The notes below the pieces were generated by a model. It ran no database searches and was not told the origin of the DNA. It was given only the letters and a program-made list of their open reading frames with translations. 64,000 nucleotides of DNA. Origin: Candidatus Poribacteria bacterium. GTDB lineage: Bacteria; Poribacteria; WGA-4E; GCA-2687025. The stretch lies in NCBI GenBank assembly GCA_963665845.2, contig OY762492.1:32001-96000 (forward strand), given 5' to 3'. How positions within the stretch are numbered: position 1 is the first letter of the stretch; every line of letters begins with the position of its first letter. Below, piece after piece: positions 18,976-37,236 of this stretch. The translations under genes were made by a program, and so were the position numbers.

Positions 18976-20125
18976 TCGGGCGCATGGAGGCGGCGCGCGC
19001 CGCAGGATAAAGCCCCGCCGCCATGCCCAGCAATACCGCCCCGCCGGCGCATGCGGCCATCAAGCCGACCGTGATCGACATGATCGGACCGTTCGGCGCG
19101 TAGGTGAGCGCGTTGCGCACAAGCGACTCCACAATTTGCGCCGCCGCCAGCGCCAGGACGCATCCGATAAAACCGCCCGCGGCGCAGATCAGCGTCGTTT
19201 CGGACCAGATCAACCTGAAGATGTCCGCCTTGGAGGCGCCCATCGCTTTCATGATTCCGATCTCCTGCGTCCGCTCAAAAACCGACATGAGAATCGTGTT
19301 GATGACGCCGACCGCGGCGACGATGAGCGCAATCGCGGCGACCGACATGACCAGTATGCGCGCGCTTGACACAAGACCCATGATCGTCTGTTTCACCCGC
19401 GCCATCGTGACCACCTGTATGTCGGGTATTTCGTACATGTCCGCTTCAAACGCGCTTGTCGCGTTCAGTTCTTTCAGCTTGACGCCGACGCCGGTCAGCT
19501 TGTTTTCAAGATGCGGAAAAATGCTCTGCAGCGTTTCCATACGGACAAAAGCCATCGCGTCGTCCTGCGATCCGCTTCGTTCAAAGACGCCGACAACTTT
19601 GAGCGTCTCTTCTGTGCCGTGAACGAGTATGAAATCGCCTGGGCTCCGCTGGTCAAGTTCGGCGGCTTCATACCCAAGAACGACCTCGCCGGCCGCGCCG
19701 GGCGTGAGCCATTCTCCCTCTTTGAATTGCATCCACGGCTTCAACTGCCGATAGGCGTCCGTCACCCCCATGTAGATGCCGGTCGCTTCGCGGTCAGGGT
19801 CGTATGAAGCATGGAGCAGCTGCGGCATAAACTTGTCGACGCGCGGATCGCTCATGATGACCTGCGCCGTCTCTTCGCTGATGTAGGTCGGGTCGACGCC
19901 GCCGGCAAGCATCATCGTCGCGGCTTCGTAGGGGCAGCCCTTCGCCGTGACGAGCATCTGGTAGCCGAGCCTGTCGACATCGTCTTCGAGCGCGTTCTGG
20001 TAGCCGTTGTTGAACCCAAGCAGGCTCACCAGAACCGCCGCGGAGGCCGCGACGCCCGCGAGCGTCAAGGCGGTGCGCGTCTTTCGGCGGAACAGGTTTT
20101 TCCAGCTCAGTTTGAAAAAGCGCAT
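18950..20125 (-). CDS. MacB/FtsX-type ABC permease
   Basis: KNLFRRKTRTALT, SVFERTQEIGIMKAMGA, YPAARAASMRPIEA. Confidence 0.92.
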   Translation of the reverse strand: MRFFKLSWKNLFRRKTRTALTLAGVAASAAVLVSLLGFNNGYQNALEDDVDRLGYQMLVTAKGCPYEAATMMLAGGVDPTYISEETAQVIMSDPRVDKFMPQLLHASYDPDREATGIYMGVTDAYRQLKPWMQFKEGEWLTPGAAGEVVLGYEAAELDQRSPGDFILVHGTEETLKVVGVFERSGSQDDAMAFVRMETLQSIFPHLENKLTGVGVKLKELNATSAFEADMYEIPDIQVVTMARVKQTIMGLVSSARILVMSVAAIALIVAAVGVINTILMSVFERTQEIGIMKAMGASKADIFRLIWSETTLICAAGGFIGCVLALAAAQIVESLVRNALTYAPNGPIMSITVGLMAACAGGAVLLGMAAGLYPAARAASMRPIEAIRKGT

Positions 20126-20143
20126 GTCGTCTCTCCTTTCGCT

Positions 20144-20545
20144 TTATTCGATCGTGTTGCCGAGGCCGAGGATATAAACGGGGGCGTCTTCGGTGAATCG
20201 AACGCGCCCCTGAACGACCGATCTCTTCCCCGCCGAATTTTTGGGGATGGCGTAGGAATCTGACCGCATTTCAAGGTCCACCTTGATCTGCTGCGTCTCG
20301 TCGGCGATGTTGAACCAGCAGCCATGCTCTGGACACACCTTCGCGATCTTGCCTTCGACGCGGACGATTTTGTCATGGTACTCTTCAGGGTTGTTGAGAA
20401 TGTCGGCGATGGCCGTGGTTTCCGTTAAGTCGACCGCTTTCCCGTAGGACTTCTCGCCGGACTTTCCGCAGCCAATCAGAAGCGCGGCGGAGGCGAGAGC
20501 GATGACGAAGAAGCTGTTGCGGAGCGTTGCGGGGCGAATGTTCAT
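20144..20545 (-). CDS. OB-fold-like lipoprotein (DUF4920-like), copy 2
   Basis: Lipobox LIGC; YG...VRVEGKIAKVCPEHGCWF. Confidence 0.75.
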   Translation of the reverse strand: MNIRPATLRNSFFVIALASAALLIGCGKSGEKSYGKAVDLTETTAIADILNNPEEYHDKIVRVEGKIAKVCPEHGCWFNIADETQQIKVDLEMRSDSYAIPKNSAGKRSVVQGRVRFTEDAPVYILGLGNTIE

Positions 20546-20725
20546 TTTGAGTTTCCCTTTCTTGCTTTCAAGGAACTGTTACCGCGCTTTCGTTCAGGTT
20601 GAAAAGTCGGTTTTCAAAGCGTCCATGGTTTCAGTTCCTGGCAGGCGTCAAGGCGGCGCGCGTCTTTCGGCGAAGCAGGTTTTTCCAGCTCAATTTGAAA
20701 ACGCGCGCGCCTTGCTCCTTTCTGG
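20546..20725 (-). pseudogene. duplication scar: permease 5' remnant plus FMN-domain gene 3' remnant
   Basis: ~20645-20705 reads RVFKLSWKNLLRRKTRAALT, nearly identical to the permease start at 20062-20125; ~20560-20610 resembles 21261-21315. Confidence 0.75.
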
Positions 20726-21172
20726 TCACCGGATCGTGTTGCCCATGCCGATGAGTTGTATGGCTCCGTTGGACACGCGAACGCTGGCTTGAACCGACGC
20801 TTCTTTCCCCTTGGAACCCTTCGGAATCACGTACGGGTCGCTGCCCGCATCCAAGACCACCTTGATGCGCTCGGTGCCGTCGGCGATATAGAACCAGCAT
20901 CCCGACATCTGGCACACCTGGCCAATCTCGCCTTCTACGCGGACCGTCTTGCCGTCGTACGCTTCCGCGTTCTTTTTAATGTCGGCAATCGTTGATGTTT
21001 CGGTGACGGTGATCTCCTTGCCGTAAAGAACCCCGTCAGCAGCTTTCTCTTTAGAAGTGGACGTTTCGGGCGCGTCAGCGCCGTTCGTTTCCTTGTCTTT
21101 GGATTTTCCGCAGCCGGCAATCAGCGCAACGGAAATGACGAAAGCGGCGGCGAGAAAAAGGTTGCGTCGCAT
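20726..21172 (-). CDS. OB-fold-like lipoprotein (DUF4920-like), copy 1
   Basis: Lipobox IAGC; VRVEGEIGQVCQMSGCWF; paralogous to 20144-20545. Confidence 0.75.
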   Translation of the reverse strand: MRRNLFLAAAFVISVALIAGCGKSKDKETNGADAPETSTSKEKAADGVLYGKEITVTETSTIADIKKNAEAYDGKTVRVEGEIGQVCQMSGCWFYIADGTERIKVVLDAGSDPYVIPKGSKGKEASVQASVRVSNGAIQLIGMGNTIR

Positions 21173-21249
21173 GTTTCGGTTCCCTTTCTTTTGAAGGAAT
21201 GGTCGCTCGTTCTTTGGTTTCTGGTTGAAAGAGTTTGGAGCCGCTCCTT

Positions 21250-21882
21250 TCATTTCTCTTTCTTGATTTCATGGAATTGCTTGTCGTATTTGCGGTCCAG
21301 GTTGAAAAAGTCGGCGTAGATCAGGTTTTTGCGAACCGCGCGAACGGTCGCTTTGAAGTCGACAGCGCTTTTTTCGTTCGGCGAACGCAGAGCCGCCGCC
21401 TTTTTGGCGTTCAGGTAGAAGTCGCCGAGCGTCAGGTCTTTGAACTGAAGCAGCGTCTCTTCCGTCTTCAACGCTTTCGCGTGCGGCGACACGACCCGCT
21501 GGTACGACACCTTCAGGATCTTCCCCTCCAGATCCAGCGCTGTGAACACCTGCATCGCGCCGAATTGCCCTTTCTGGTTCACCCCAGAGACATAGCCGAT
21601 CGGCTTTTCCCCTTTGAGAACCACATAGGTGGTGTGTTCCAGGTCTGCAGGCTCATATTTTTTGTCCAGTTTGTCGCCGAGACGCGCCTCAAATTCTTTG
21701 ATCAGCGTCTCTCCGCCCGCCTCTTTGAGCGAGCTGACGACCGTTTTGTAACCGGTCGATTCAGGAAAAAACTTGCGGATGTCCCTGTCCGGCTTTTGAA
21801 GTTTGCATGCCGTGATCGCGTCGGCGCCGTTCGGCAGCGCGGCGGCGATCATGAAGGCGGCAAACAGAGCGATTCGTTTCAT
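21250..21882 (-). CDS. exported FMN-binding-like domain protein
   Basis: Signal peptide; IRKFFP..., KGQFGAMQVFTALDLEGKILKV, LLQFKD pattern; no [S/T]GAT motif. Confidence 0.55.
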   Translation of the reverse strand: MKRIALFAAFMIAAALPNGADAITACKLQKPDRDIRKFFPESTGYKTVVSSLKEAGGETLIKEFEARLGDKLDKKYEPADLEHTTYVVLKGEKPIGYVSGVNQKGQFGAMQVFTALDLEGKILKVSYQRVVSPHAKALKTEETLLQFKDLTLGDFYLNAKKAAALRSPNEKSAVDFKATVRAVRKNLIYADFFNLDRKYDKQFHEIKKEK

Positions 21883-21894
21883 GGGGCATTCCTT

Positions 21895-22860
21895 TCAAAA
21901 TGCAGTGTGAAGAAGCATGAGAAGAGCGGGGCGGCGCAGGTCCGTCAACTCTTGGGTGAACGCCGCCTCCCACGCAAACGAGAGCGGACCGCCGCTGAAT
22001 TCTCGGCGCAGCGAGGCGATTGCCCACGCCGCGTCCTGATGAGCGCGCGCGCTGACGGTCAACCGCCACGGGTCCATCGGACGAACGGCGGTCGCTTCGC
22101 CCGCATAAAGCCGCTTGCCGTTTCTCTGCCCGACCGACAGCTCCAAGCGCGGTTCAATCGTTCCGTTGAAGGCGAAGAGGACGGTTTGCAGGTCGAACGC
22201 GGCGCGCTGCTCCCCGTCTTGAATCGACGCGCCGTTCTGATGTTTCCACAGCGCCGAGACGCCGTATTGCATGACGCCGTCCGAATAAGGCTGAACGCGC
22301 GCGGACGCCGTCCATTCGCCTGCTTTCTTGTCGAACGGGTTGCGTTGGTTTCCTCCAAGAACAGCCGCTTCGTAGTCGAAGCTGTCCAGCTGCCCGTTCA
22401 GCGAGGCTCCCCATCGGCGCGCCGGTATTCCGTTCGACATGGACAAGCTGGGTATCAGCTCTCGGTGAAAATCGATAACGGGGTTCAGTCCGAACGGCGT
22501 TTTGAACCGTCCGAGGCGCAGGTTGGCGCGCCCGTTCAGCCCTCTTAAGTTGATGTAGGCGTCATGGATTTCGGCGCCCCAGTCGCCGCTTCTCTGCATG
22601 AAGCGGTTGTCCATGGCGAGGTTTTGCGTATGCGCATACCGCAGCTGCAGGGCGGCGGTCGCCCAGTCGCCGCTCTCGGTCGCCAGTATCTGTACGACTT
22701 CGATGCCGGCGGCGGCGCGGAGGGAGCTGACCAGCTCGTTGTCGGCGCGCGCGCCGCCGGCAGCGAGATAAAGCTCGCCGCTTGCCGTTCCCTCGGCATG
22801 AGCGAACGCGGCGGCCGCCATGCAGGCGGCGTATGTGAGTGTCCAAAGCGGTTTCCGCAT
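21895..22860 (-). CDS. outer-membrane beta-barrel (porin-like) protein
   Basis: Signal peptide; IHDAYINL, LRLGRFKTPFGL, amphipathic strands, terminal Phe. Confidence 0.65.
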   Translation of the reverse strand: MRKPLWTLTYAACMAAAAFAHAEGTASGELYLAAGGARADNELVSSLRAAAGIEVVQILATESGDWATAALQLRYAHTQNLAMDNRFMQRSGDWGAEIHDAYINLRGLNGRANLRLGRFKTPFGLNPVIDFHRELIPSLSMSNGIPARRWGASLNGQLDSFDYEAAVLGGNQRNPFDKKAGEWTASARVQPYSDGVMQYGVSALWKHQNGASIQDGEQRAAFDLQTVLFAFNGTIEPRLELSVGQRNGKRLYAGEATAVRPMDPWRLTVSARAHQDAAWAIASLRREFSGGPLSFAWEAAFTQELTDLRRPALLMLLHTAF

Positions 22861-22926
22861 GATAGGAAACGCCTTCTGTTGCGCAATGAAAGATGAAGGT
22901 TGTTGAAGCGCGCCGGTCTTGTTGAA

Positions 22927-23337
22927 TTAGACGGGGGGCGCTCTAGAGGGGTGGGCGGCGCGTCGAGGCGGAGGAGGAGGAAGCGCGCGGGATTCAAGAC
23001 AGGAGGAAGAGGCAGAAACGGGCGCGTTCAAGGCGGCGGCGCATTCGGTCATGCCAAGATCGAAGGAAGCGCCTATGTTCACCGTTTGCGCGGGGACAAC
23101 AGGCGCATGCTCGGCGCTCTCTTCAACGGAGCAATCGCTAGAGCAGAGCGGCTCTGCCGTCCCGCAACAGCAGGCGGCGGACCCCGTCGGCGAAACGTCG
23201 GCATAGGACGCCAGAAGGACCGCCGTCGGGAGAGTCGCCATCGCCGCTAAAATCAGAAAAATAGCGGCGGCATGTTGAACGCGCTGATGGTTCTTTGTGC
23301 GCATCGTTCCGCTCATGTGTATCGTCATGCCGTTCAC
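22927..23337 (-). CDS. Cys-rich leader protein with C-terminal RAPP motif (DUF2946/CutF/CruR-like)
   Basis: Hydrophobic N-segment, ACCCG..LCSSDC, C-terminus PPPPPRRAAHPSRAPPV*; true start may be one of the downstream ATGs. Confidence 0.7.
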   Translation of the reverse strand: MNGMTIHMSGTMRTKNHQRVQHAAAIFLILAAMATLPTAVLLASYADVSPTGSAACCCGTAEPLCSSDCSVEESAEHAPVVPAQTVNIGASFDLGMTECAAALNAPVSASSSCLESRALPPPPPRRAAHPSRAPPV

Positions 23338-23480: not shown

Positions 23481-24770
23481 CTAATTTAGACTAGAAAATG
23501 GATTGAATAAACGGACGCAAGACAACTGCCACCGCTTCGCCTCCTCTGCAAACTGGCTGATGTCCATAAAGCGGGCGGGGCGGTCCGAAAGCGTTTCTTC
23601 GTTGCGCACATTCTGCCGCATCCGCGCGATATACTGCGGATGAAGCTCGGTCATGAAGAAATAACGCCCCAGCAGCAGAGCCGCCTTGCCGAGCGTTCCG
23701 CTTCCGCCGAACGGATCAAACACCAGATCGCCCCGAAACGAGTACAGCTTCACCGCCTGCATACACAGCTTCAACGGAAACACGGCGCTATGGACGCGGT
23801 CGGACGCCGGCGCAATCTCCCACACGTTCGAACGTTCAAAATCGTCGTCCACCTTGCTGCGCTGCGCGGCGTCTTCAGAATACTGCCGCAGGTTCCAGTC
23901 GATCAGCCTGCGCGACTTTTTCCGATACACCATCACATATTCGGTTCGCGCGTTCGCTTTGTAGGTCAACGGCGTTCGATTCGTCTCAAAACCCGCGACC
24001 CGATTTTTGACGCTTTTGTCCGGCTTCGCCCAGACGATGTCGTCAATAAACTCCCAGCCCATCGGCGTCAACCGCGCATGCAGGTCGAACGGAACCGCAT
24101 ACCGCCGGCTAGAATACTTGCGCCCCGCCCGCGGAACGATCACCGGCGATGTGTTTAAAACAAAAAACCGCCCCTCCTTCGTCACGCGGTGGACTGCCCG
24201 AAACGCTTCCTCTAAAAAGTCGAGATATTCGCCGTAGCTGCCGTAGATCGCATAGTCGCGCGCGTTGTAGTACGGCGGCGATGTGAAGGTCAGGTGAACG
24301 GACGCCGAAGGGACATGCCCCAGCGTCTGCAGCGCGTCCCCTTGAATCGCCGCGTTTTTCATGAAGTCGGGAGACGCCGCATGCGGCTCCTCCTCAACCG
24401 GCGCATTCCCCTCCAGCTCCTGCGCCACGATGTCCTGAATCATATCGTTCGGATGATTCCGCAGCCCGTTCAAAAACTGAACGACGGACGGATCCGACCG
24501 AAACACAAGCAGCCCGCGAATCGCCTGAAGCGCGATCTCCGGGTTCGGATGCTCCGCGTATTGCGTCAAGATCGGCTTGAGAGACGGATCGCGCTTTCTG
24601 CCGATAGAGGCGGCCGCCTCCCGCTTCTCGGCGGTGGACGCCTCGCTTTCAAGGACGGCGAGGCAATCCTCCAGCGGCATCTCCGCGGATCCCAAGAGGC
24701 GCCGCGTTTCCGTCGGCGCCTCCTCGCTCTCAAAGAGCGGGTTGTCGTAACGCTCTTCCTGGTTGGGCAT
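23481..24770 (-). CDS. beta-class N4/N6 DNA methyltransferase with N-terminal HEAT repeats
   Basis: FTSPPYY catalytic motif precedes DPFGGSGT SAM motif; N-terminal KREAAASIG...ALQAIRGL HEAT-like. Confidence 0.88.
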   Translation of the reverse strand: MPNQEERYDNPLFESEEAPTETRRLLGSAEMPLEDCLAVLESEASTAEKREAAASIGRKRDPSLKPILTQYAEHPNPEIALQAIRGLLVFRSDPSVVQFLNGLRNHPNDMIQDIVAQELEGNAPVEEEPHAASPDFMKNAAIQGDALQTLGHVPSASVHLTFTSPPYYNARDYAIYGSYGEYLDFLEEAFRAVHRVTKEGRFFVLNTSPVIVPRAGRKYSSRRYAVPFDLHARLTPMGWEFIDDIVWAKPDKSVKNRVAGFETNRTPLTYKANARTEYVMVYRKKSRRLIDWNLRQYSEDAAQRSKVDDDFERSNVWEIAPASDRVHSAVFPLKLCMQAVKLYSFRGDLVFDPFGGSGTLGKAALLLGRYFFMTELHPQYIARMRQNVRNEETLSDRPARFMDISQFAEEAKRWQLSCVRLFNPFSSLN

Positions 24771-25628: not shown

Positions 25629-26408
25629 TTACCCCACTTCCTGTCCGTCCAGTCTCCCCACATCAAGATTCGCTTCCTCGCGCGTCTCGATTTTAGAAAC
25701 GCGCCCGTCCTGAATATGAATGATGCGGTCGGACACATCCAGCATTTTCAAGTCATGCGTCGCCGTGATGATCGTCGTGTTCTTCTCCGCGTTCAGCTCT
25801 CTCAACAGGTTGATGATCTCGATTCCTGTCTTTGTGTCCAGGTTGCCGGTCGGCTCGTCCGCCAAGATGATGGACGGATCGTTTGCAAAAGCGCGCGCGA
25901 TGGCGACGCGCTGCTGCTGACCGCCCGACAGCTCCACCGGCTTATGCCGAAGCCGGTCGCCCAGCCCCACCATGCCCAATATCTGCGCCCCTTTCTCAAT
26001 GGAATCGTCCCCCGTGCCGCCTGCGAAGATCATTGGCAGCGTCACATTTTCCAGCGCCGTCATGACCGGTATCAGGTTGAAGGTTTGAAAAATATACCCG
26101 ATCTTGCGGCAGCGCAGCCATGCCAGCTCATAGGCGTCCAGCTGCGCGATGTCCACCTCGTCAATGTAGACGCGCCCCTCCGTCGGCTTGTCGAGTCCGC
26201 CGACCATGTTGAAGAGCGTCGACTTGCCCGAACCGGACGGACCGACGATGGAGATATACTCGCCGCGCCGTATCTCTAAGTTCACCCCGCGCAGCGCCTC
26301 TACGACCACATCGCCCATCTCGTATTTCTTGACAACGTTGCGAACGCGCACCGCGTTCTCGACAATCTGTGACGGCGCCGCCGCGGCGGCCGCTTGCTCT
26401 GGAATCAT
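25629..26408 (-). CDS. ABC ATPase (LolD/MacB type)
   Basis: GPSGSGKS, LSGGQQQR, ILADEPTGNLD, ATHD. Confidence 0.93.
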   Translation of the reverse strand: MIPEQAAAAAAPSQIVENAVRVRNVVKKYEMGDVVVEALRGVNLEIRRGEYISIVGPSGSGKSTLFNMVGGLDKPTEGRVYIDEVDIAQLDAYELAWLRCRKIGYIFQTFNLIPVMTALENVTLPMIFAGGTGDDSIEKGAQILGMVGLGDRLRHKPVELSGGQQQRVAIARAFANDPSIILADEPTGNLDTKTGIEIINLLRELNAEKNTTIITATHDLKMLDVSDRIIHIQDGRVSKIETREEANLDVGRLDGQEVG

Positions 26409-26866
26409 CGTCTTTTGCCCGCCTTTCCTCGTTTTGCTTGTTGGATAGCTTCTTTAGCCGCTTCTGGCGCGGCAAATGCCAGTATACCGCGTTTTCCAAG
26501 ATTGCGGAAGAACGCCGCCAGCGACGTCTCCGACTCCCGGCGCGTCATTCGAAAACGTTCCGATAAACGGCGCGCAATCTGCTCAAAGGTCTGCTCCCCG
26601 TCGCACTCCCGCCACACAAACGAACCGACCTTGTCCAGCGCCACAACGCGCGTTTTCGGCAGATCCATCACCCGAATCAAAATGCGGAAAAGACGCTTCT
26701 GATCCGCCGGTATGATGAGCGACACCTCGCCGCGTTCGTCCGTTTCCCACTTCACCTTCGGGTTGCGGAACGGCACCGATTTGAGCACATCCGCGCGGTT
26801 GCGCTGAACCGGCGGACGCTTTTTCAAGCGGAGGGCGGTCAGCGCGCGGTTCAACGCCTGCCCCAT
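26405..26866 (-). CDS. PqqD-family / RiPP recognition element protein
   Basis: VALDKVGSFVWRECDGEQTFEQIARRLSERF...FFRNLGKRGIL is a PqqD winged-helix pattern; ATG overlaps upstream TGA. Confidence 0.8.
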   Translation of the reverse strand: MGQALNRALTALRLKKRPPVQRNRADVLKSVPFRNPKVKWETDERGEVSLIIPADQKRLFRILIRVMDLPKTRVVALDKVGSFVWRECDGEQTFEQIARRLSERFRMTRRESETSLAAFFRNLGKRGILAFAAPEAAKEAIQQAKRGKAGKRR

Positions 26867-27783
26867 CAGCCGCGCATGCTCTCTGCGATGGGGCGTATCC
26901 ACCGCTCAAGCGGCCCCTTGCCGGTCGCGCGGGCGACATAAATGCGGTTCGTTGTTTCATCGTTCCAGAAGTAGCCGCGCGTCGTCGGACGGCGGTAGCT
27001 CCGTTCCCACGGCTTCGGGAATCGCACATCCCATAGCCGATAGACGCCGCCCATCTCCTCAACAGGATCGGCAGCCAGGACGGAGCCTTTGATCTCTTTT
27101 CGATAGGCGCCGCGGAACCAGTCGTCTAGGCTCGCGTTCTCAAGCAGCGCGTCCGCCAGCCCGTAGCGTTCAACAGCGATGCGCCGCGACCCGTCCGTGA
27201 ACGACATTAGAATATACCCGTTCATGAACTGCGTTTTTTCAAGGCGGAACCGCCTCGGCGTTTCGACCTCAAATCCGTATGCTGTCCATAGGTTGAGTCC
27301 ATTTTCGGGATGGTCTCGAAACGAGCTGAAGATGCGCGACGCGGTTTGACGCAGATTTTCGCCGCTGGGCGGTCCGATCGCCTGTATCATGACCGCGCGG
27401 CAGCAATGTTCGCAGCGCATGACAGCGCCGAACGCCCTGTATCCGCCTTTCCATGAGAAAAAAAGCGCTTCTTTGTTTTCATAAAACGCGGCGTATTTGC
27501 CCGATTTGGGGATCAAGCGGCGGTCGCGCCGTATTTCAATGTTTCCGATCTGTTTTCGGTAGGTTTTTTGAACGCCCTTCAGATACTGGTTTGCCGTTTT
27601 ATCTAGGTTGAATTTGCGCTGCGCTTTGCTCCATTTCAGCTCAAGGCGGGGCTGATTGGCGTCGTCTAGGCGGAGATAGCCTTCCCATGGATCATGCGTC
27701 TTTGGGGCGCCCGCCAGCTCCCAGTCCGCCGGCATCTCCGCCGACATCCCTTGCCATCCAAATCGTACCCAGCCGTCCAACAT
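26866..27783 (-). CDS. hypothetical protein with two similar halves
   Basis: FGWQGMSAEMPADWEL vs WTAYGFEVETPRRFRL; CEHC motif; operonic. Confidence 0.7.
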   Translation of the reverse strand: MLDGWVRFGWQGMSAEMPADWELAGAPKTHDPWEGYLRLDDANQPRLELKWSKAQRKFNLDKTANQYLKGVQKTYRKQIGNIEIRRDRRLIPKSGKYAAFYENKEALFFSWKGGYRAFGAVMRCEHCCRAVMIQAIGPPSGENLRQTASRIFSSFRDHPENGLNLWTAYGFEVETPRRFRLEKTQFMNGYILMSFTDGSRRIAVERYGLADALLENASLDDWFRGAYRKEIKGSVLAADPVEEMGGVYRLWDVRFPKPWERSYRRPTTRGYFWNDETTNRIYVARATGKGPLERWIRPIAESMRG

Positions 27784-27821
27784 GGCGGCTTTTCTCCCAT
27801 TTCATGCGTTCATGCGCGGCG

Positions 27822-29882
27822 TCAAAACGGCTTCACAATGACCGATTTTTGGATCAGGTCTAAGGCGACGCCCGCCATCCCGACTAGAGCCAGTCCACAC
27901 CAGAAGCCTGCCAGCAGAACAGGGTTGTACCGAGACCAGCGGTTCCGCCCAAACCGCTTGATCATCGCATACCGCCCGACAAGCGCGCCGACAAACTGCA
28001 ATAAAAACTGCCCAGGGTCGGCGCCGAGACCGCCGATGAACCCGTACCCCGCGATATGTTTATACGGCAGGCGCGCCGCGACGCTCAACCCGTACACCCC
28101 CAGCGACGCGACCATGCCGACCATCACAAAGGCGGGGCGTATCGCCTGCAGCTGTTCGCTGTGTCCGTCGCGCAGGGCGGTGATCCAGAGCGCGCGCTGC
28201 GTCGCAAAGATGGGCCACATCATCTGCGAAAACTGGTACTGCGCGGACGGAATCGGCGCCAGCTTCCAGATGAAATGCCACGCCGCAATGCCCGCAATGA
28301 GCAGCACGGGCCAGGCGATGAAATCCGCCAAAACGCGGCTTGTAAAGGTGGTGCCGGTCAGCTCCAGAACGCGCCACCGCTCCGTCTCCGTTCCGTAGTC
28401 TTCGTTCGGGAAGGGGGCGAACCAGATGTCGATCTCGTCGTATTTGCTGAGAATAAAGGTTGCCTCGCGGATATACGGTATATCGAACAGGTCGCGGCTC
28501 ATGATGCCGAATGTCCGCGCGCTGATATACGAGTTGAGCGGCGTGTATAAGAAACCGAAGCCGAGCAGAAACGCGAGCGGGAAATTCGGGATGAGGCGGT
28601 GAACCACATACACATAGCCCGCCATGCCCAACGCCCAGATGAGCAGCGTCGCCCAGAGCGGGAAGTCGCCCCGCCCCGCCGGGACTTTCCATGTGCCGCC
28701 TTCTCCGACTCCCGGCGCCTGCGCGTTCGCCTGCCTTCTCCGACGCGCCCATAGCATGGACGCGATGGTGCCTAAACCTAAAATCGCAAAGGCGAAGCTG
28801 CGCCCGTACCCAAAACTCATCCAAAAATCGAGGCTGTTGCGCAGCATCGTCACCCGGACATCCATGCCTGGTTCCCAGGTGTTCAGTATATCTTGGCGGT
28901 ACAGAAACGGGTTTAGGATAAACTGCGAAAAACATGCCGCCACAAATTGCGCCACCACAACAGGAATCGGCATGACGAACCCATGCAAGATCTGGCTCGC
29001 GTCCGTATGGATGGCGAAGACGCCTGTCGGGGCGAAGCTCTCGACGCTCTGCGTGAAATCGATAAACGGAATGGGGATGATGCGCAGCGGCTCCGACATG
29101 CCCAGCGCGCCGCTCACCTGCGGTATGCCGACATACACCGCGCCCCATGCCATGCCGATGATGGAGCCGATGCTGAAAACCCGCCAGCGCCATGTCTCCG
29201 TCTTCGTCGTGCTTTCGGCTAAAGCGGTCGCGCCCTGGGCGTGTACGGGCGCCATCGGGTACGGCAGTTTCTCAAAGTCGGCGGTGAGCCTGTATAAGAA
29301 GTAGCTGCCGGAGAGATGGCGCATCCTCCCTAACAGCTGCAAGATGAGCATGAGCGTGATGGGACCGACGGCGATGCCGAACACGGTTCGTTTGTCGCGG
29401 GCGGCGATCCACCAGTCCTTATGCAGCAGCGACCGCTCCGCATGCGCCTCCGAGTCTTTGGGCGGTATTGACCAGTCCGGCACCTTGTCCGAGACCTCAA
29501 ACGATTCCGCCTGCTGCGAGTTGATGAAGTAGGAGTCGAAGATGTAGTGGCTGTACTGTCCCCCCGCGCCGACGGCGGCGCCTGTCAACGCGAGCAGGAT
29601 ATACAGCTCCTGGCGGCGCGCTGTTTGAAAGGATCGGCGGGCGATCTCCGTAAACAGAATCACCGCGACCCACGGCGCCGCGGCCCCGCCCGCGCCTTGA
29701 CCCGTCTGTATCGACAGGTACAACGCGCCGGGCATCATCAGAAAGCCGACGAAAAAGGCGCCGAGCAGCACCTTCAGCGTCAAGCCCGATTCAAAACGGC
29801 GATGCCCCTCGTCCGTCTCATAACGTTTTGCCCATGACTGCATCTCCTCAGCCAAGGACTCCGATCTGCGTTGTCTTGCCAC
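27822..29882 (-). CDS. OPT-superfamily-like polytopic transporter
   Basis: Many TM helices; WVAVILFTEIARRS, EKLPYPMAPV, FSIGSIIG, IPIPFIDFT. Confidence 0.7.
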   Translation of the reverse strand: MARQRRSESLAEEMQSWAKRYETDEGHRRFESGLTLKVLLGAFFVGFLMMPGALYLSIQTGQGAGGAAAPWVAVILFTEIARRSFQTARRQELYILLALTGAAVGAGGQYSHYIFDSYFINSQQAESFEVSDKVPDWSIPPKDSEAHAERSLLHKDWWIAARDKRTVFGIAVGPITLMLILQLLGRMRHLSGSYFLYRLTADFEKLPYPMAPVHAQGATALAESTTKTETWRWRVFSIGSIIGMAWGAVYVGIPQVSGALGMSEPLRIIPIPFIDFTQSVESFAPTGVFAIHTDASQILHGFVMPIPVVVAQFVAACFSQFILNPFLYRQDILNTWEPGMDVRVTMLRNSLDFWMSFGYGRSFAFAILGLGTIASMLWARRRRQANAQAPGVGEGGTWKVPAGRGDFPLWATLLIWALGMAGYVYVVHRLIPNFPLAFLLGFGFLYTPLNSYISARTFGIMSRDLFDIPYIREATFILSKYDEIDIWFAPFPNEDYGTETERWRVLELTGTTFTSRVLADFIAWPVLLIAGIAAWHFIWKLAPIPSAQYQFSQMMWPIFATQRALWITALRDGHSEQLQAIRPAFVMVGMVASLGVYGLSVAARLPYKHIAGYGFIGGLGADPGQFLLQFVGALVGRYAMIKRFGRNRWSRYNPVLLAGFWCGLALVGMAGVALDLIQKSVIVKPF

Positions 29883-29906
29883 TCGACTCCCTCTAAGGCG
29901 CCATGT

Positions 29907-32900
29907 TTAGTCGGAAGCGAACGCGGGCTGGCTTTCCTCGCGTCCGCGCGCGTGAAACTCGCCCCGCAGCTCCACATTGAAGGTGCGCCATATCAACAAT
30001 TGCTTGCGTATCAAATTGAGAAAGCGCCGGTTGACCCGCTTCCACGACGCGATCTCCCCGCTCTCGCGGTAGATCGTCAGGTGAATGCGGCACAGGTCTT
30101 CCTCCTCGCCCCCGACGGGCGACGTCTGCAAACTGATCCGCTGGCTCACTCCAAGATCGTACGGCGCAAGCCAGATCATCATCTCAATTGCAAACTGCTC
30201 CTTAGACTCTCCCTCTGGACGTTCACGTTTAAACGTTACATTGTCGGCGTAAAAGTCGCTTGCCGATTCATCCGCATGCGCCTCAAAATAGTCGCGCATG
30301 AAGATGTTCAGTCCAAGCGCCTCTTCGCCCAAAACCGTAAACGGCAGATCAAAATTCCACTCGTCGCCGTCCGGGTCGGGCAGCCTCCATTTGCGTTCAA
30401 TGTCCGGCACCGCCATGCGCCCCGCTTTAATCGCCGGGTAGAGCGTTGACGCCAAAACAACAAACATAACGATCATCGTTGCATAGACCGTCGAACGCGC
30501 CGAATAGTTGAGCGTCAAACCGGCGAGCCATCCTGTCTGCACAAGGGTCCATGCGGTCGCCTGACCAATCAAATATCCGACCACCGCTCCCAAAACCGCA
30601 TAGACGCACGCCTCCGCCATGAACAAAAACGCGATATGGACGGGCGCCAAACCGACCGCGCTGTAGATGCCGATCTCGCGGACGCGCTCATAGACGGCGC
30701 CCAGCATCGTGTTCAACACAATCAGCGCGGCAATCAAAATCGGAATGAACAGGTTGCTCATCTGCTCCGTCGATGAGCCGCCAATGGAGCTGTAAAGATA
30801 GACGTTGCGCCCCTTGCCGACAAAAAAGTCCAAGCCCGACCGCTTCATGATCGGCGCCATGACCGCGTCAATCTTCTGCTCTACCGAGACGCCTTCGGGA
30901 AGCTCCTTGTTCAGATCCTGCATGTTGACCGCAACCGACTTCACATTGCCGCCTGAATCGAGCGCCAGCTGATAAGGTATGACCGCAATCTGATCAGGCG
31001 GAAGGTGCTGATATTTCTGCAGCTCGCCCTCCAGCGTCTCATCGGTCGATTGCCGCTGTTGCTGCTGCTGGAGGAGCGTGTAGTCGACAGGCGTCAGCTC
31101 TTCGCCGTCCAGATCGCGCAGCTCCTTGAAGTCGATGCCGAGAACGCCTACGACGGTGAAATCGGCGCCGAGAAGTCGAACCTGCGCCGTCTCATTCACA
31201 ACCGCTTCTTCCGTGATTCCAAGCGAGTCCGCCATTCCCTTCGGCAGAACGCACACGTAGGCGTCCCGCTCGTTCTCCTCAAACCAGCGTCCGTACGCCA
31301 GCTTCGAATCGATGCGCGTTACCCGCTTTTCTTCGGGCGCCATGCCGACCAGCATAGCGGCGTTGTACGCCCTGTCAGGCTCCATGAGGCTTTCGATGCG
31401 GATGGAGGACTGGTTTCCGACGCTTGCCGACTCATACCATGCCCGCGGGGCGACGACGTTGGTCGCTTCTATCTGGTACGTCTCGCCGTCCGCGCGCGCT
31501 TCGATGGTCGATTTAGAAAAGTTTGTCTTGGCGCCTTCGACGACCGGCTCCTCCAGCGGGCGCCAGTACTGATCGCGTATCAGCGCGCCTTGATAGCTCG
31601 GCGTCACGCCCGGTATGCGCGTTGAGTGCGCCCGTATCTCCGTCCGAACCGAGGTGAAGGAGATGACCGTAAAGGTGAGGGCGATGAGCGTCGCGCAGGT
31701 CAACAGGGTGCGCCCGCGCCGCTTGCGCATGTTGGAGATGCCGAGAGAGAACGCCGCCGCGCTCGCCGACAGGCGCCCGACATCCGCCTTGTAGATGCGC
31801 GACTTCTCCCGCCGCATCTGCTCCAGCTGCTCGTTGAACTTGCGCAAAATGATCGAGATAACAACGATGGTGAGCGCGAGAATGATGAACGCGATCAGGA
31901 TGATGAACGCTGTCTCGGCGATCTCAAACGCCGGATGGACGCGGCTTAAAAAGAAAAAGACGGCTAAGAAGATGCCGAAGGTGTAAAGGATGCGCTTGTT
32001 GATATTCGTCGCTGAAAAGAGGAGCCGTTCCCCAAAAAGCGAGAACGGCAGCAGCAGAAACAGGTAGAACATGACGCCGCGGATCACATCGTTGCCGGTC
32101 GCTTTGACGTCTGGATAGGCGATCGATTCGTTGCCCCATCCCGCGCGCGCCTTTTTGAGCGCCGCAGAGTATTCGTTCGCCGCGAGCAGCGTCTCCGCCT
32201 CGTTCAGCAGGCGCGCCGCTTCGCCATGCAGCTCCTCTAGGCGCTGGTTGCTGATGCCGTAACGTCTGTACATGCCGATGCGCGCCTCGTCCAGACGCCA
32301 CATGTCCTGAACGACCACATACGGCGTGACGCGGATGGAGCCGTTTTCAAGCGCCAGATACCCTTCGCCTGTGTAAAGCGTCGGGTTTTCGACGTTCGTC
32401 TCGGTCGCCTTCACCAGAAGCAGCAGCTTGCCGAGCAGCCCCGACGTCATGCTGATTTTGACGCGCGCGCCCGGTTCCGAATAGACCAGCGCGATCGGCT
32501 CCGCCGCGGACACCATCGGCTGCGACCATGGCGCGGACGCCCCGTAACGCTCCGGCGGCGCGTCCCGAAAAGCGTCAAACACCTGCAGAGAGGTCAGCGT
32601 ACGCAGATAGCGCTGGTCGACAAGATCGTAGATCGTGGTGCTGACGCATGGAAACGCGACCACATTTGCGCCGACGCGCCGGCGGTTCACGGCCACATTG
32701 CGCGGATAGATCTTGTCGCCGAACTCGCCCAGGTCGGGCGCATACGCAATATCGCCCGAATCTTTGTCGAGAACAAACGCCTCGACCGTTTGCCGCCCGC
32801 CTGGACGGCGCGTCGCCCTGCCCTCCATCGCCAAGCCGCTGACGACATACTTGCCTTTCTGGTTGCCTAATACGGTCAGGTCGCCGCGGACGCCCATCAT

Positions 32901-35900
32901 CGTTTTGTTGCGGCGGCGCACGATGACGACCGCGTCCTGAACGGGCGTCTGCGGAACGGCGCTCTCCCGCGCGTCATACTCGACGACACGCCCGGTGAGC
33001 GTCACATAAAAGTTGCCGACGCGCGCCGAGGTCGGCATCTTCGGATCGCGCAGCGTCTGAACCATGAGAGACGCGAGCGTCTGTACCTGCTCGCTTAGGT
33101 TTTCAAAGTTGAGCCTGTCGTAGGTGTCCAGCGGCGTGTCGGTATAAACGCGCCCGTCGTTCACGGTGGCGAACGCGATTCCTGTTTTGCCGGACAGCGT
33201 CGCCACCTCCGAGTCGAAGGCGATCTTGCCGGGGATGTAGGTCTGCCAAGTGTTGCCGCCGCTGGCGCTGATGGCGTTCACAAAGTTGGTCTCGGAGCGG
33301 ATGCCCGCCATGCTTGTCAAGGCGCGCAGGTCGCTGATCTCCTCCTCCGTCAGCTCTTCGATGGGAACATTCTTGAGCGCCAGCATCTTTTCAACGCGCG
33401 CGAAAAGCCGTTTCGTCGATTTGCGGCGGCGGCGCGTCTCGCGTATGTCGTTGCGGACGAACCGCTCCGCCTCCTTGCGGATGTAGTCGATGTCTTTCAA
33501 CATCGTTTTGGACGGCTCGCCTTTCTCGCGCATGTCTTCAAACTGCAGCTTCATCAAACGGCTCACGCCGCCGAGCGTTTTGAGCGTGTCGTAATGGTCA
33601 AAGACAAGCGTTTCAAGCGTCTTGCCTTCCAGCTCCTCCAGCGCCGCTAAGCGGTCGGCGACCGCCCATTGACTTGTTAAAATCGCCTGTTTGATATGGT
33701 CGTCGGGAAATTTGCGCAGCGTCTCAAGGTTCCGCTTCAGGTTCGCGTTCAACGCATATTCGGACAGCTTATTGCCGATGGGGGCATATTCTCGGCGCAG
33801 GCTGAATTCGCGGTTGTCGTCGTAAAACCAGCCCTTGTAAAAGACGCCGAAATCTTTGCTCTGCGTTGACAAATCCAGCGAGACGACAAGCGACTGATAA
33901 TACTGCCCCAGTTCCTGTTGAAGCTGAAGCGACTGAATCACATTGCCGATGCGTTCTGAATACTCCGCCGTGTCGATGCGCGAGAGCCGCTCCACACGTT
34001 TATGTACATTCCGCACGCGCGAGTTGCGCATCGTCAGGAGGTTGTTGCGCAGGAGCCGTTTTTCGTCTTCGTTGTATGCTCTGTCCATGGAGGGCAGCTC
34101 TTGTGCCAGGCGGTTCAGCTCCAAGATGTCGTTGCGCGCCTGACGCAGCGCCTTTTCCAGAAGCGATTTTTCCTCATGCTCCGCGAACAGCTGGCGGCGC
34201 GCCGTCTCCAGCGTTTTCATGTCTTCTTGAGATAAATGGCGGCGAAGGGCAAGCCGTTCTTCATGGCGAAACTCGCGCTGGAGCCTGTCCGACTCCGACA
34301 GCGTCAACAGCTGCTCAATGCGGCGCGGCTCCCACTCAATGCGCCGGCGGGCGATCTCCAGATAGCGCGCCGCCTCGCGGGACGCCGCCTCCTTCGCCTT
34401 CGGGTCGCGCATCTCTTCGTATATGCGCCCCATTGCCGCCAGTTCGTCTTCGGTTAAGTACATCTCCAGCAGACGTTTCGCGTCTCGAAACGACCCGTCC
34501 AGCAAGCCGTCCATCGCTTCTATGTCGGCGTCGCGTTCGCCGGAGGTTTCAAACGCGGCCGCCGATTCCAGCGCCGTATTCAGCAGCCGCCTCTCGTCGG
34601 ACAGGTAGCTCTCGCTGTCCAGTTCCCGCTCATGCAGCGCGGCGCGCGCCCGGCGAATGCGCCCCAGCTCCAGCGCTGTCAGGTGCCGTCCGAGTATCTT
34701 GTCGGGGACATACATGCGGGCGATGCGCCCTCTTTCGATCTCCCAATCTTCCAGCGCCTGCGGCTCCGCTAGGCTTGCCAGCGCCTCGTTCGGGTCGATC
34801 TGTCCGTAGCCCGGTATGGCGGCGGTCGGCATCTGCGGGGCGGAACTCAACAGTTCGGCGCGCAGATAAAGCGGGAGAATCGAATCGGTTTCATCGCGCG
34901 GATATTCGCCGCCGTATTCCCCCTTCGCCAGGCTTTCGGCGATGGCGTCCATCGCCCAGACATCCACCTTCGCCAACGGCAGCGCAATGTCGATGATCTG
35001 CCGCCGCTCCGTGTCGCGCGCCTGCCGCAAGGCGGCCGCTTTCAAGTCGCCGACGCGCGCCGCGATGCCCTTTAAAAACTGCGCCGTCTGAATGCCTAAA
35101 AACTCCGCCCGCGCCAAACCGGTGTCCAGAAGGGCGCGCTCCTCGTCGGTGAACTCCTGGCGGTCGCGGTTTTTGGAAAGGTCAACCGTCGTGCGTTTCC
35201 GCTCATCCTCTTTAAAGGAGCGCTGCTGCTCCTTTAACCGATCCACGCGCGACTGAACGGCGCTCAAATCTTCTAAACTCAACTCAACCGATTTCAGATC
35301 GGTCGACAGCGCCTCCACCCGGTGAAAGAAGGCGGGCGGAAACTCGACCAGATAGCCGCGGTCAATCGACAGCGCGATCTTGCGCCCCAGCTCGGAAAAC
35401 TCGATGGCGTCGGAATTCAGGTCGCGCCGAAGTTCCCGCATCGCCTCGACATTGTCTTGACTCAACCCCTCCATGAAAGCGCGCATGCCTGACAAGCCTG
35501 AAAAATGCCCTCCCGTCGCCAAAAACAGCGCCGAACGGCTAGGGCGGAATTCCGGCTGGCTCAAGAGGCGTATCAGTTCCAGCATCGCTGCGATGCCGCT
35601 GGTCGTCTGCGCTCCCGGCGCCAGAGACGGAACGACCGACATCGAATCGTAATAGGTCTGAATGACAATCAGCTCGTCGCGGAGAGACGGATCGCTCCCG
35701 CGCAGAAGCCCCGTGATGTTCTGCCCCTGCCGGCTTTCCCAGCGCACATCGCAGGTGAGCTGGGCGTCCAAAGCCGCGCCGGCGTCCATCTCTTTCAATA
35801 AAAATTCGGCGTCGTCGCGTCCGATCCAGAAGCGGGGAATGCTTGCCGGCACCGTCAAAAACTTGTTCTCCGCCGCGCCGCGCAAGGTGTCTTCAGGCTC

Positions 35901-36983
35901 TATGAACAAGACCGCCTGCGCGCCCAGCATCGCGGCGTTGATCCAGTTGGAGCTGGCGTTGAAGTCGATGAGAGCGACGGCGCCCTGCGGTATGAAAAGG
36001 GAAGCTTCGTCCGCCTTGGCGGGGTCTTCATCCGCCGTTTCGTCAATGTTACCGTCCTCGTCGTTGTCGATCCCGTCGGACGCCCAGCCGGCGATGGTGG
36101 AGAGTGGATCGATTTCGCCGTCCTCATCGATTTCGCCGTCTCCGTCGTTGTCGATGCCGTCCGTTGAGCGGCTCAAATGCAGGTTTAGGATGTCGTCCAG
36201 AATGGCGCCGGTCGTCACGCGGTGGCGGCGCGCGACCGACTCCAACGTGTCGCCCGGTTGAACAGAGACCCAGAAGCCGCCGATCGGCTGCCCGTCAAAA
36301 TCGGACAGGTCGCCTGTCCCGCCGTATGCCAAACGCCCTTCAAGCCCGCCTGTTGGGATGAAGATCGGCGCGCCTTCTACAGGCGTGATCTCTCCGTCCA
36401 GATCGGCGTCGTCCACATAGCCGTCGTTGTCGTTGTCTAAGCCGTCGCTGCGTTGACCGCGGAGGGAGGCGTTGCGCGGGTCGTTCACGATGGCGTCCGC
36501 GCTGACGCGGTAGTCGGAGGCGAGGGAGGCTAACGTTTCGCCCTGCCCGACGCGCCGTTTCAACCCGTTCGGAATGAAGGAGGTGCGCGCCAAATTCGGC
36601 CAGATCGAACGCACATCAATCTGGCGCAGTACCGTTCCGTTTGATGAGACGGTCAGGCGTCCGCTTTCGCGTTCCACGGGCGTTGCGACGGAGAAGGAGC
36701 GCGACTCAACCTCCTCTAGCCCAAGATCATGGAACCGGTCGAACACATACTTTGCGGCGCTGTCGGCTCCTGGGTAGCCGACGATGCGCGACTCCAGCGC
36801 CGTTAGACGCGCCATATCGCGTTTGATCCGATCGATCTCGACGGCTTGCCGAATCGCTTCCGCGTCCTCGGAGAGCGTCAACTTGGAACGCTGCGCATGC
36901 GAGGAGATAAACGGGAGCGCCGCCAGCGCCAGAAGAACGGCAAGCAAGAGCCGCTTTTTTTCAGAACCGCAAATCGTTTTCAT
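29907..36983 (-). CDS. giant exported LysM/PA/M28-like protein fused to FtsX/MacB-type permease
   Basis: Signal peptide; SRIVGYPGADSAAKYV; 2 LysM; NITGLLRGSD..YYDS; ISNMRKRRGRTLLT; AVYERVREIGIYSAVGL. Confidence 0.85.
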   Translation of the reverse strand: MKTICGSEKKRLLLAVLLALAALPFISSHAQRSKLTLSEDAEAIRQAVEIDRIKRDMARLTALESRIVGYPGADSAAKYVFDRFHDLGLEEVESRSFSVATPVERESGRLTVSSNGTVLRQIDVRSIWPNLARTSFIPNGLKRRVGQGETLASLASDYRVSADAIVNDPRNASLRGQRSDGLDNDNDGYVDDADLDGEITPVEGAPIFIPTGGLEGRLAYGGTGDLSDFDGQPIGGFWVSVQPGDTLESVARRHRVTTGAILDDILNLHLSRSTDGIDNDGDGEIDEDGEIDPLSTIAGWASDGIDNDEDGNIDETADEDPAKADEASLFIPQGAVALIDFNASSNWINAAMLGAQAVLFIEPEDTLRGAAENKFLTVPASIPRFWIGRDDAEFLLKEMDAGAALDAQLTCDVRWESRQGQNITGLLRGSDPSLRDELIVIQTYYDSMSVVPSLAPGAQTTSGIAAMLELIRLLSQPEFRPSRSALFLATGGHFSGLSGMRAFMEGLSQDNVEAMRELRRDLNSDAIEFSELGRKIALSIDRGYLVEFPPAFFHRVEALSTDLKSVELSLEDLSAVQSRVDRLKEQQRSFKEDERKRTTVDLSKNRDRQEFTDEERALLDTGLARAEFLGIQTAQFLKGIAARVGDLKAAALRQARDTERRQIIDIALPLAKVDVWAMDAIAESLAKGEYGGEYPRDETDSILPLYLRAELLSSAPQMPTAAIPGYGQIDPNEALASLAEPQALEDWEIERGRIARMYVPDKILGRHLTALELGRIRRARAALHERELDSESYLSDERRLLNTALESAAAFETSGERDADIEAMDGLLDGSFRDAKRLLEMYLTEDELAAMGRIYEEMRDPKAKEAASREAARYLEIARRRIEWEPRRIEQLLTLSESDRLQREFRHEERLALRRHLSQEDMKTLETARRQLFAEHEEKSLLEKALRQARNDILELNRLAQELPSMDRAYNEDEKRLLRNNLLTMRNSRVRNVHKRVERLSRIDTAEYSERIGNVIQSLQLQQELGQYYQSLVVSLDLSTQSKDFGVFYKGWFYDDNREFSLRREYAPIGNKLSEYALNANLKRNLETLRKFPDDHIKQAILTSQWAVADRLAALEELEGKTLETLVFDHYDTLKTLGGVSRLMKLQFEDMREKGEPSKTMLKDIDYIRKEAERFVRNDIRETRRRRKSTKRLFARVEKMLALKNVPIEELTEEEISDLRALTSMAGIRSETNFVNAISASGGNTWQTYIPGKIAFDSEVATLSGKTGIAFATVNDGRVYTDTPLDTYDRLNFENLSEQVQTLASLMVQTLRDPKMPTSARVGNFYVTLTGRVVEYDARESAVPQTPVQDAVVIVRRRNKTMMGVRGDLTVLGNQKGKYVVSGLAMEGRATRRPGGRQTVEAFVLDKDSGDIAYAPDLGEFGDKIYPRNVAVNRRRVGANVVAFPCVSTTIYDLVDQRYLRTLTSLQVFDAFRDAPPERYGASAPWSQPMVSAAEPIALVYSEPGARVKISMTSGLLGKLLLLVKATETNVENPTLYTGEGYLALENGSIRVTPYVVVQDMWRLDEARIGMYRRYGISNQRLEELHGEAARLLNEAETLLAANEYSAALKKARAGWGNESIAYPDVKATGNDVIRGVMFYLFLLLPFSLFGERLLFSATNINKRILYTFGIFLAVFFFLSRVHPAFEIAETAFIILIAFIILALTIVVISIILRKFNEQLEQMRREKSRIYKADVGRLSASAAAFSLGISNMRKRRGRTLLTCATLIALTFTVISFTSVRTEIRAHSTRIPGVTPSYQGALIRDQYWRPLEEPVVEGAKTNFSKSTIEARADGETYQIEATNVVAPRAWYESASVGNQSSIRIESLMEPDRAYNAAMLVGMAPEEKRVTRIDSKLAYGRWFEENERDAYVCVLPKGMADSLGITEEAVVNETAQVRLLGADFTVVGVLGIDFKELRDLDGEELTPVDYTLLQQQQQRQSTDETLEGELQKYQHLPPDQIAVIPYQLALDSGGNVKSVAVNMQDLNKELPEGVSVEQKIDAVMAPIMKRSGLDFFVGKGRNVYLYSSIGGSSTEQMSNLFIPILIAALIVLNTMLGAVYERVREIGIYSAVGLAPVHIAFLFMAEACVYAVLGAVVGYLIGQATAWTLVQTGWLAGLTLNYSARSTVYATMIVMFVVLASTLYPAIKAGRMAVPDIERKWRLPDPDGDEWNFDLPFTVLGEEALGLNIFMRDYFEAHADESASDFYADNVTFKRERPEGESKEQFAIEMMIWLAPYDLGVSQRISLQTSPVGGEEEDLCRIHLTIYRESGEIASWKRVNRRFLNLIRKQLLIWRTFNVELRGEFHARGREESQPAFASD

Positions 36984-37029: not shown

Positions 37030-37058
37030 ACTATACGCGAATGCGGACGCAATGTCAA
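37030..37058 (-). promoter_or_regulatory. sigma70 promoter of the giant-protein operon
   Basis: TTGACA-17bp-TATAGT. Confidence 0.75.
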
Positions 37059-37067
37059 CCGGACTTC

Positions 37068-37236
37068 CTGACCTTACGTCTTAAGTTGGGACATGTCGGC
37101 ATGCGAACGCGGACGTCTTCTGCGGCGGTCTCTGGATTCCCGCTTGCGCGGGAATGGCGACCTGGTTAGCAACGTCTTTTTCCCATGAATAAAGACTTTG
37201 GTCGTTCAAATGTCCCAACTTTCTGCATGAGGTCAG
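37068..37236. mobile_element. complete 169-bp MITE-like element (family A)
   Basis: 27-bp TIR CTGACCTTACGTCTTAAGTTGGGACAT / ATGTCCCAACTTTCTGCATGAGGTCAG (21/27), central GATTCCCGC..GCGGGAAT hairpin; partial copies elsewhere. Confidence 0.8.

Follow-up and report, generated by a model that had tools for sequence, protein, structure and literature searches.

Group II transporters of the energy-coupling factor (ECF) type are described as having one ATP-hydrolysing module per genome and many scattered, dependent, substrate-specific membrane subunits (PMC4820897, PMC7755397). Barley YS1, of the OPT/YSL superfamily, is presented in the cited account as an elevator-type proton symporter, in which two helical hairpins build the substrate site, the tip of the first hairpin lines this site, and the scaffold forms the dimer; the protein is self-sufficient and has been expressed alone in insect cells (PMC9691689). 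Type VII ATP-binding cassette (ABC) units include MacB, LolCDE, FtsEX, YtrEF, HrtBA and BceAB. Transferrin receptor, nicalin and nicastrin are M28 pseudo-peptidases. A five-gene block in which a type VII ABC unit, an M28-like ectodomain and an OPT-fold protein meet is the subject of this work. It resides at positions 25,629 to 36,983 of the window, by which we mean the whole 64,000-nucleotide stretch analysed, from a Candidatus Poribacteria bacterium (assembly GCA_963665845.2, contig OY762492.1, positions 32,001 to 96,000 of the forward strand).

The five genes, here called A to E, are part of a seven-part system, two components of which, S and U, reside outside the window. S is a small FtsX-only protein which adjoins a second ATPase, E2, and U a multi-copy protein of the DUF6785/6784 type. 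A first-pass annotation, made from the letters of the window alone, had listed five components; all five are conserved, and the list lacked S, the second ATPase and U, which on our analysis would turn a single five-gene transporter into a system of one motor and many carriers. The folds of the parts are known, and their obligate combination is no known kind of system. The features of the block are as follows.

37030..37058, minus strand: promoter match TTGACA-17-TATAGT, sigma-70-like, 47 nucleotides upstream of A (consensus match only)
29907..36983, minus strand: A, 2358 amino acids, with Pfam Peptidase_M28, LysM, MacB_PCD and FtsX
33143..36791, minus strand: M28/PA region of A, with a remodelled metal site (YYDS, PGAQ, GGH, LDLS and TDTPLDT motifs)
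31830..32090, minus strand: three extra transmembrane helices of A, ahead of the FtsX unit and outside MacB/LolC (hydropathy, model helices)
27822..29882, minus strand: B, 686 amino acids, membrane protein of the OPT/YS1 fold, conserved in single copy, homologous to DUF6785/6784 over its full length
26866..27783, minus strand: C, 305 amino acids, cytoplasmic two-repeat protein with no Pfam family
26405..26902, minus strand: D, 165 amino acids, PqqD/RRE fold, system-specific subfamily, usually directly before S
25629..26408, minus strand: E1 (that is, E), 259 amino acids, LolD/MacB-type ABC ATPase with intact motifs

The open reading frames (ORFs), all on the minus strand, lie where the first-pass annotation had placed them, and its picture of tightly spaced or overlapping genes behind one promoter agrees with the measured gaps (24, 38, -37 and -4 nucleotides at A/B, B/C, C/D and D/E). 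The promoter, at 37058-37030, is the top sigma-70-like match within 15 kb, with 11 of 12 positions; 7 sites of this type were found in the 15 kb region, against 4.0 +/- 2.1 in shuffled sequences. Short metatranscriptome contigs of a related strain (three runs, one study) cover much of the block; DNA carry-over is possible, and since the match is to contigs, it cannot demonstrate transcription or co-transcription.

Conservation of the block was surveyed in the best 80 of 570 confirmed GTDB loci of B, 41 of them the closest and 39 from outside Poribacteria. The closest named homologues are from Candidatus Poribacteria, and B has been identified in all 41 Poribacteria genomes searched, mostly in one copy. 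Of the 41 closest loci, 39 read A-B-C-D, with or without E, and the remaining two run into a contig end. Outside Poribacteria, A directly precedes B in 25 of the 39 loci, and the orders A-B-C-D-S-E and S-E-A-B occur in 7 and 6, respectively.

A and U co-occur almost without exception. A was searched by its ectodomain profile (E<=1e-30) in Planctomycetota, the phylum of genome G041, and by its membrane profile (E<=1e-60) in Armatimonadota, the phylum of G042, and in the phylum of G044. Among 251 Planctomycetota genomes A was identified in 34, U in 35 and B in 37; A and U coexist in 33, A occurs without U in 1, U without A in 2, and neither in 215. All 35 U-positive genomes carry B. In Armatimonadota (151 genomes; A in 126, U in 127) both are found in 126, U only in 1 and neither in 24, and in the third phylum the same 20 of 94 genomes hold A and U. 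In the 496 genomes pooled, both occur in 179, A only in 1, U only in 3 and neither in 313, counts which are not independent trials because the genomes are incomplete and related. When 37 B-positive and 37 B-negative genomes of the G041 set are compared, C is found in 31 versus 0 and D in 32 versus 1. S, read at E<1e-40 (generic FtsX matches end at 1e-29), is found in 35 of 37 versus 0 of 37, and thus supplies a candidate second membrane unit for a type VII dimer, in which A and S would pair.

Copy numbers are sharply unequal. Five genomes contain 26, 27, 18, 44 and 6 DUF6784 matches, some of them fragments, versus usually one A; in G012, G023 and G042, where fragments are few, 26, 27 and 18 matches stand against one B, two tandem B and one A, respectively. 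U thus reaches about 25 copies per genome, and A is usually single. The source genome has 8 U genes, none of them beside the A operon. U adjoins A in many loci of other genomes, and two A-U fusions are found: in P0237 (a cluster of 56, with Latescibacterota names) a DUF6785/6784 protein makes up the C-terminus of A, and a second A-U fusion has been identified in locus L095. All seven part types reside in one block in 7 of 28 loci fetched, non-randomly, from the G041 set. A small contig of the source genome (G000:C3:2833-12945) repeats a region containing a selB-like gene, a U and a large protein (C1:1289176-1299277), with the U copy split, and is possibly an assembly duplicate.

Protein A is a large composite. 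A signal or anchor at the N-terminus is followed by an M28/PA pseudo-peptidase that contains insertions of a Poribacteria type (LysM-like, acidic repeats, long helical inserts), by transthyretin-like and beta domains, a helical bundle and the three extra transmembrane helices. The C-terminal part comprises a MacB/LolC-type transmembrane helix TM1, a periplasmic domain, TM2-4 and a cytoplasmic helix-grip (START/KA1-like) domain. The assignments of the first-pass annotation (M28/PA and MacB/FtsX for A, PqqD-like for D, LolD-type for E) agree with Pfam and NCBIfam. For an Armatimonadota orthologue, a model of the 987 residues at the C-terminus (526-1512) reached a predicted local distance difference test score (pLDDT) of 87.6. 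The model and Pfam MacB_PCD and FtsX both place in A the type VII four-helix unit with a periplasmic domain between TM1 and TM2, and the folds matched include MacB (5gko, E 5e-11), YtrF (Z 16.2) and LolC/E; the small domains have middling fold matches (Z 8-9; about 9 for the transthyretin-like one). The A of the window is longer by ~785 residues, spread over nine insertions. The family is large, with 800 clusters (50% identity) at E<1e-30 against the A ectodomain. In three relatives (P0220, P0260 and P0267; 2769-3053 amino acids) over 1,000 residues of repeated domains that look Ig-like precede M28 on its N-terminal side, the ectodomain being extended freely.

M28 peptidases have an established metal and catalytic set consisting of His-x-Asp, Asp, Glu-Glu, Asp/Glu and His. 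The ectodomain of A matches PA-domain M28 aminopeptidases (E 4e-21), nicalin (5e-8), transferrin receptor (1e-5) and nicastrin (0.05), and, in alignment to 2ek8, departs from the residue set of active aminopeptidases at the first His, the Glu-Glu pair and the last His. Throughout the family the first His is Tyr in 113 of 147 members (His in 10), Glu-Glu is replaced by Gly/Ala-His, and the last His is Asp in 122 of 146. Three positions are conserved at 97-99%, namely Asp236 (146/147), His281 (143/147) and Asp334 (144/149). Because the site is remodelled and these three residues are kept, A is no canonical peptidase, and its site is probably not a dead one either. The M28 pseudo-peptidases have the same PA and M28 fold and the same loss of the first His and catalytic Glu-Glu pair; A differs from them in being fused to an ABC permease and in keeping its own invariant Asp/His set, so that a metal or ligand site in the ectodomain is possible.

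Towards the described type VII systems A shows both likeness and distance. TM1, the periplasmic domain and TM2-4 match MacB, YtrF and LolC/E, the LolD-like ATPase is likewise intact, and two different FtsX-type chains, A and S, recall LolC/LolE. Yet, A is longer by about 1,300-1,900 residues, and the conserved gene set is without a MacA/TolC, LolA, EnvC or kinase partner, the partners being OPT-fold membrane proteins. Identity with MacAB-TolC, LolCDE or FtsEX is not indicated, as A reaches 17-32 bits versus NCBIfam cut-offs of 250-966, and the partner genes are absent from the conserved neighbourhood.

B had been called OPT-like in the first-pass annotation, and both a weak Pfam/NCBIfam match to OPT_sfam (E 0.0037) and the model of B (pLDDT 87.5) point the same way. 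Barley YS1 is the sole fold match (Foldseek E 5e-10, TM-score 0.60), and the superposition covers 552 residues at a root mean square deviation of 4.5 (Z 22.4; next 4.4), at 12-13% sequence identity. The YS core and scaffold fold of the OPT/YSL superfamily is present in the model. A profile of B gave no match among PDB sequences, where the fold search did find YS1; PF03169 is matched by 9 of 60 B homologues, and no relative of B was found in viral contigs. B and U align end to end by profile over 571 columns with a probability of 94.6% (2% in a first attempt with shallow alignments). None of 36 U members matches the OPT NCBIfam model, and U is best regarded, by its profile, as a homologue of B with a putative OPT fold. 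The U paralogues of G012 share 33-71% identity. The tip of the first hairpin is glycine-rich and conserved in B (0.57, versus an average of 0.46), polar and variable in U (0.37 versus 0.48 among paralogues of one genome). Known OPTs (barley YS1, 7WSR/7WST) are stand-alone proton symporters; in contrast, B or U without the ABC core occur in almost none of the genomes tested.

A second conserved context of B has been observed in Armatimonadota, where extra B paralogues lacking an adjacent A (L047, L051, L053, L057, L058, L062, L067 and L068) are located behind a HEAT/TPR gene, which itself often has a zinc-ribbon gene in front. Genes of the prepilin-type N-methylation/DUF1559-like kind recur in the same phylum after B (L043, L044, L046, L049, L052, L054, L055, L056 and L070) and near U (L143, L147 and L153); such genes are abundant, and the recurrence may be due to chance. 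The Atlas result for B includes DUF6784/6785 clusters of mostly archaeal membership (Thermoproteota, Bathyarchaeota).

S and E2 are adjacent in the source genome (G000:C1:3233639-3235095) and in 5 of 5 other Poribacteria. The periplasmic domain of S is nearly absent in Poribacteria and Armatimonadota. E2 is 63% identical to E1, and Walker A, Q-loop, signature, Walker B and H-loop are intact in both. E1 matches Pfam ABC_tran and, best among NCBIfam models, a LolD-like one, below its cut-off (236 vs 308). In a tree of the ATPases all six E2 of Poribacteria fall into a single supported group, separate from E1; the tree is unrooted, outgroups being too long, and its bootstrap unsettled. D matches Pfam PqqD (E 4e-11). 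C has no Pfam family (25 members searched) and no PDB sequence match; its Atlas neighbours DUF3805 and Alr1449 (0.81-0.82) are leads only. C and D are fused in three of the genomes fetched, and usually precede S. In locus L080 S is fused to a PilZ domain (11968-13026), in the absence of C or D; the fusion suggests that cyclic di-GMP could control the machine.

The genes flanking U hint at substrates. In one Poribacteria genome catabolic, redox or carbohydrate enzymes account for 19 of 40 neighbours of 20 U genes, versus 9 of 40 at evenly spaced control positions (p 0.034). A set of 22 neighbours from two further genomes, partly hand-picked and considered without a control, includes 11 glycosidases, sugar kinases, isomerases or similar enzymes. 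Some U genes are located in glycosidase loci, for example next to GH2 or GH116 (L140, L152). Genes resembling PorV-type barrels, recognised by eye with no family match at threshold, adjoin U three times (G000:C1:1216269-1221206, L122:6463-7557 and L131:8808-9743). In the source genome one U follows a 2063-amino-acid gingipain-like-looking gene, and one is located behind a thiamine-pyrophosphokinase-like gene (motif recognised by eye).

One ATP module, a constant carrier-fold subunit, many solitary variable carriers almost confined to genomes with the module, and fusions make up the pattern of group II ECF transporters. The reading we tentatively favour, not far short of probable, is that of a seven-part ATP-driven importer, in which A, S and an ATPase dimer would be the motor, B a fixed adaptor, and the U subunits would dock and carry substrate inward. 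According to this view, A and S would form a LolCDE-like heterodimeric membrane unit upon the ATPase dimer, with B as the fixed partner of the motor, and U proteins would dock singly and in turn, plausibly on B via the OPT scaffold interface, as substrate-specific elevator carriers. ATP-driven movement of the FtsX helices would then move the carrier, and not only periplasmic domains. Substrates would probably be sugars and other small organic nutrients, and C-D could serve S and the ATPase as an adaptor or regulator in the cytoplasm. It is possible, though still doubtful, that this is a new class of primary active importer, in which a MacB/FtsX-type motor drives the elevator stroke of secondary-carrier-fold proteins, and one motor and one constant OPT-fold adaptor serve exchangeable DUF6785/6784 carriers, up to dozens of them, so that the ECF logic would have been invented independently. 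By the genome pattern the logic would be the same, with a single motor, many solitary substrate subunits, putatively exchangeable, and occasional fusions and operons. The folds are not in common. The motor is type VII (MacB/FtsX) and not EcfT, the variable subunits are putative OPT-fold proteins of ~650 amino acids and not 20-kDa S-components, and the giant periplasmic pseudo-peptidase, the constant OPT-fold subunit and two cytoplasmic adaptors are additional. EcfT and S-component folds were not matched, and no core membrane protein matched an ECF family.

Several points weigh against an ATP-driven importer. The type VII ABC units described in PMC5985334 do their work beyond the membrane, and transport of substrates through it is not ascribed to them; YS1 being a self-sufficient proton symporter, U could likewise be driven by protons. 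A pure membrane motor would have no use for the large periplasmic part of A, and this part is always kept, with its conserved Asp/His residues. No A resides beside B in 14 of the 39 non-Poribacteria loci (2 cut by contig ends), U lacks an A match in three genomes, archaeal DUF6785 clusters exist, and the co-occurring genomes of a phylum are kin. The second hairpin and TM9 of U are no more variable than average within one genome, and the enrichment of enzymes near U is modest, its categories having been fixed after seeing the data. When a complex was predicted from paired alignments of Armatimonadota orthologues, combining B and the membrane parts of A, the score was 0.11 versus a mark of 0.32, which weighs neither way.

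Known type VII units act on the periplasmic side, and for this reason two other readings must be weighed. It is rather unlikely, but deserves attention, that the ABC unit moves the ectodomain of A, which would capture, strip or process the substrate, or a carrier-bound substrate, and pass it to the attached B or U, translocation being driven by the proton gradient. Known type VII systems work in this manner in the account of PMC5985334, the MacB-type periplasmic domain of A is complete and its large ectodomain keeps Asp236, His281 and Asp334, the M28/PA fold matched in transferrin receptor acts there as a ligand receptor, and a hand-over accounts for the same co-occurrence and fusions. Yet, some 25 divergent carriers with different pockets, as in G012, would have to share the one ectodomain of their genome; the additions specific to the A family include membrane and cytoplasmic parts, such as the three extra helices and the helix-grip domain; and S is nearly devoid of a periplasmic domain in Poribacteria and Armatimonadota. 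Alternatively, A, S and E with C-D could insert, mature or switch on OPT-fold carriers, which would then work alone. One machine with many clients suits the copy numbers, and the S-PilZ fusion is a hint of regulation. A, with its nicalin-like pseudo-peptidase, transthyretin-like domain and seven C-terminal transmembrane helices, has an architecture which we take to recall the nicalin-NOMO-TMEM147 complex of membrane-protein biogenesis. True aminopeptidases, however, score far above nicalin, so that convergent decay may account for the likeness, ordinary OPT/YSL proteins need no such machine for folding, as the expression of YS1 indicates, and a permanent A-U fusion fits a working complex better than a passing client. 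An assembly, quality-control or gating machine is improbable.

The first-pass annotation had proposed an undescribed complex for peptide capture and translocation, coupling an ABC mechanotransducer to a secondary-carrier fold and a peptide-binding adaptor of the cytoplasm. A conserved, undescribed module, in which an OPT-fold protein and a PqqD-like adaptor go with a type VII ABC unit, is supported; the peptide substrate is not. That D binds a peptide, which the ABC unit and the OPT protein capture or export in the manner of ribosomally synthesized and post-translationally modified peptides (RiPPs), draws on the PqqD/RRE fold of D, on OPT family members being carriers of peptides, and on nearby genes, namely an M16 peptidase pair upstream (2 loci) and a radical SAM gene downstream (1 locus). 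The sole peptide hint at U is one family-5 binding protein gene, divergent from a U. However, no conserved RiPP precursor or maturase was found beside the cassette in the 80 + 36 loci examined, where ORFs below 80-90 amino acids were not called. D is fused to C and placed ahead of S rather than of biosynthetic genes, the genes of the system are single-copy core genes throughout the phylum, which RiPP clusters are not, and the neighbours of U are mostly sugar and small-molecule catabolic enzymes. A peptide system is thus very improbable.

If the importer reading is true, two DUF families would gain a function, both belonging to the most strongly expanded membrane proteins in several uncultured phyla (4 of 5 genomes counted have 18-44 DUF6784 matches), and an answer would be at hand as to how these bacteria, degraders of polysaccharides and small molecules, acquire their substrates. 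The system could be a main route of nutrient uptake in Poribacteria, Armatimonadota, Latescibacterota and part of Planctomycetota, and the line between primary ABC and secondary elevator transport would be blurred. Armatimonadota include cultured members, and the system is therefore testable. No literature on DUF6785, DUF6784 or such a system was found in open-licence PMC and bioRxiv text, supplements excluded; even under the rival readings, an obligate association of a type VII ABC unit, an OPT-fold protein and an RRE-fold adaptor outside RiPP biosynthesis is absent from that literature.

The run of genes continues past E with a xylose-isomerase-like gene after 2 nucleotides and, 4 nucleotides further, an N6/N4 DNA methylase (23481-24770) with an N-terminal HEAT-repeat region. 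The isomerase is found behind E in only 1 of 80 related loci (L004), and is thus not a core part; both genes were dropped as components, not being conserved behind E. Restriction-modification and HNH genes have been inserted within the cassette of other Poribacteria (L005, L010 and L024). Just upstream of the promoter lies an element resembling a miniature inverted-repeat transposable element (37068-37236), with 27-nucleotide imperfect terminal inverted repeats and at least 163 matches over 120 nucleotides in the source genome. It was ruled out as the source of the promoter because its left arm, at 37068, begins beyond the -35 box. An unrelated second FtsX cassette resides in the window at 17531-23337, where a MacB_PCD/FtsX permease and two tandem ABC ATPases are accompanied by a porin-like gene and two DUF4920/OB-fold lipoproteins.

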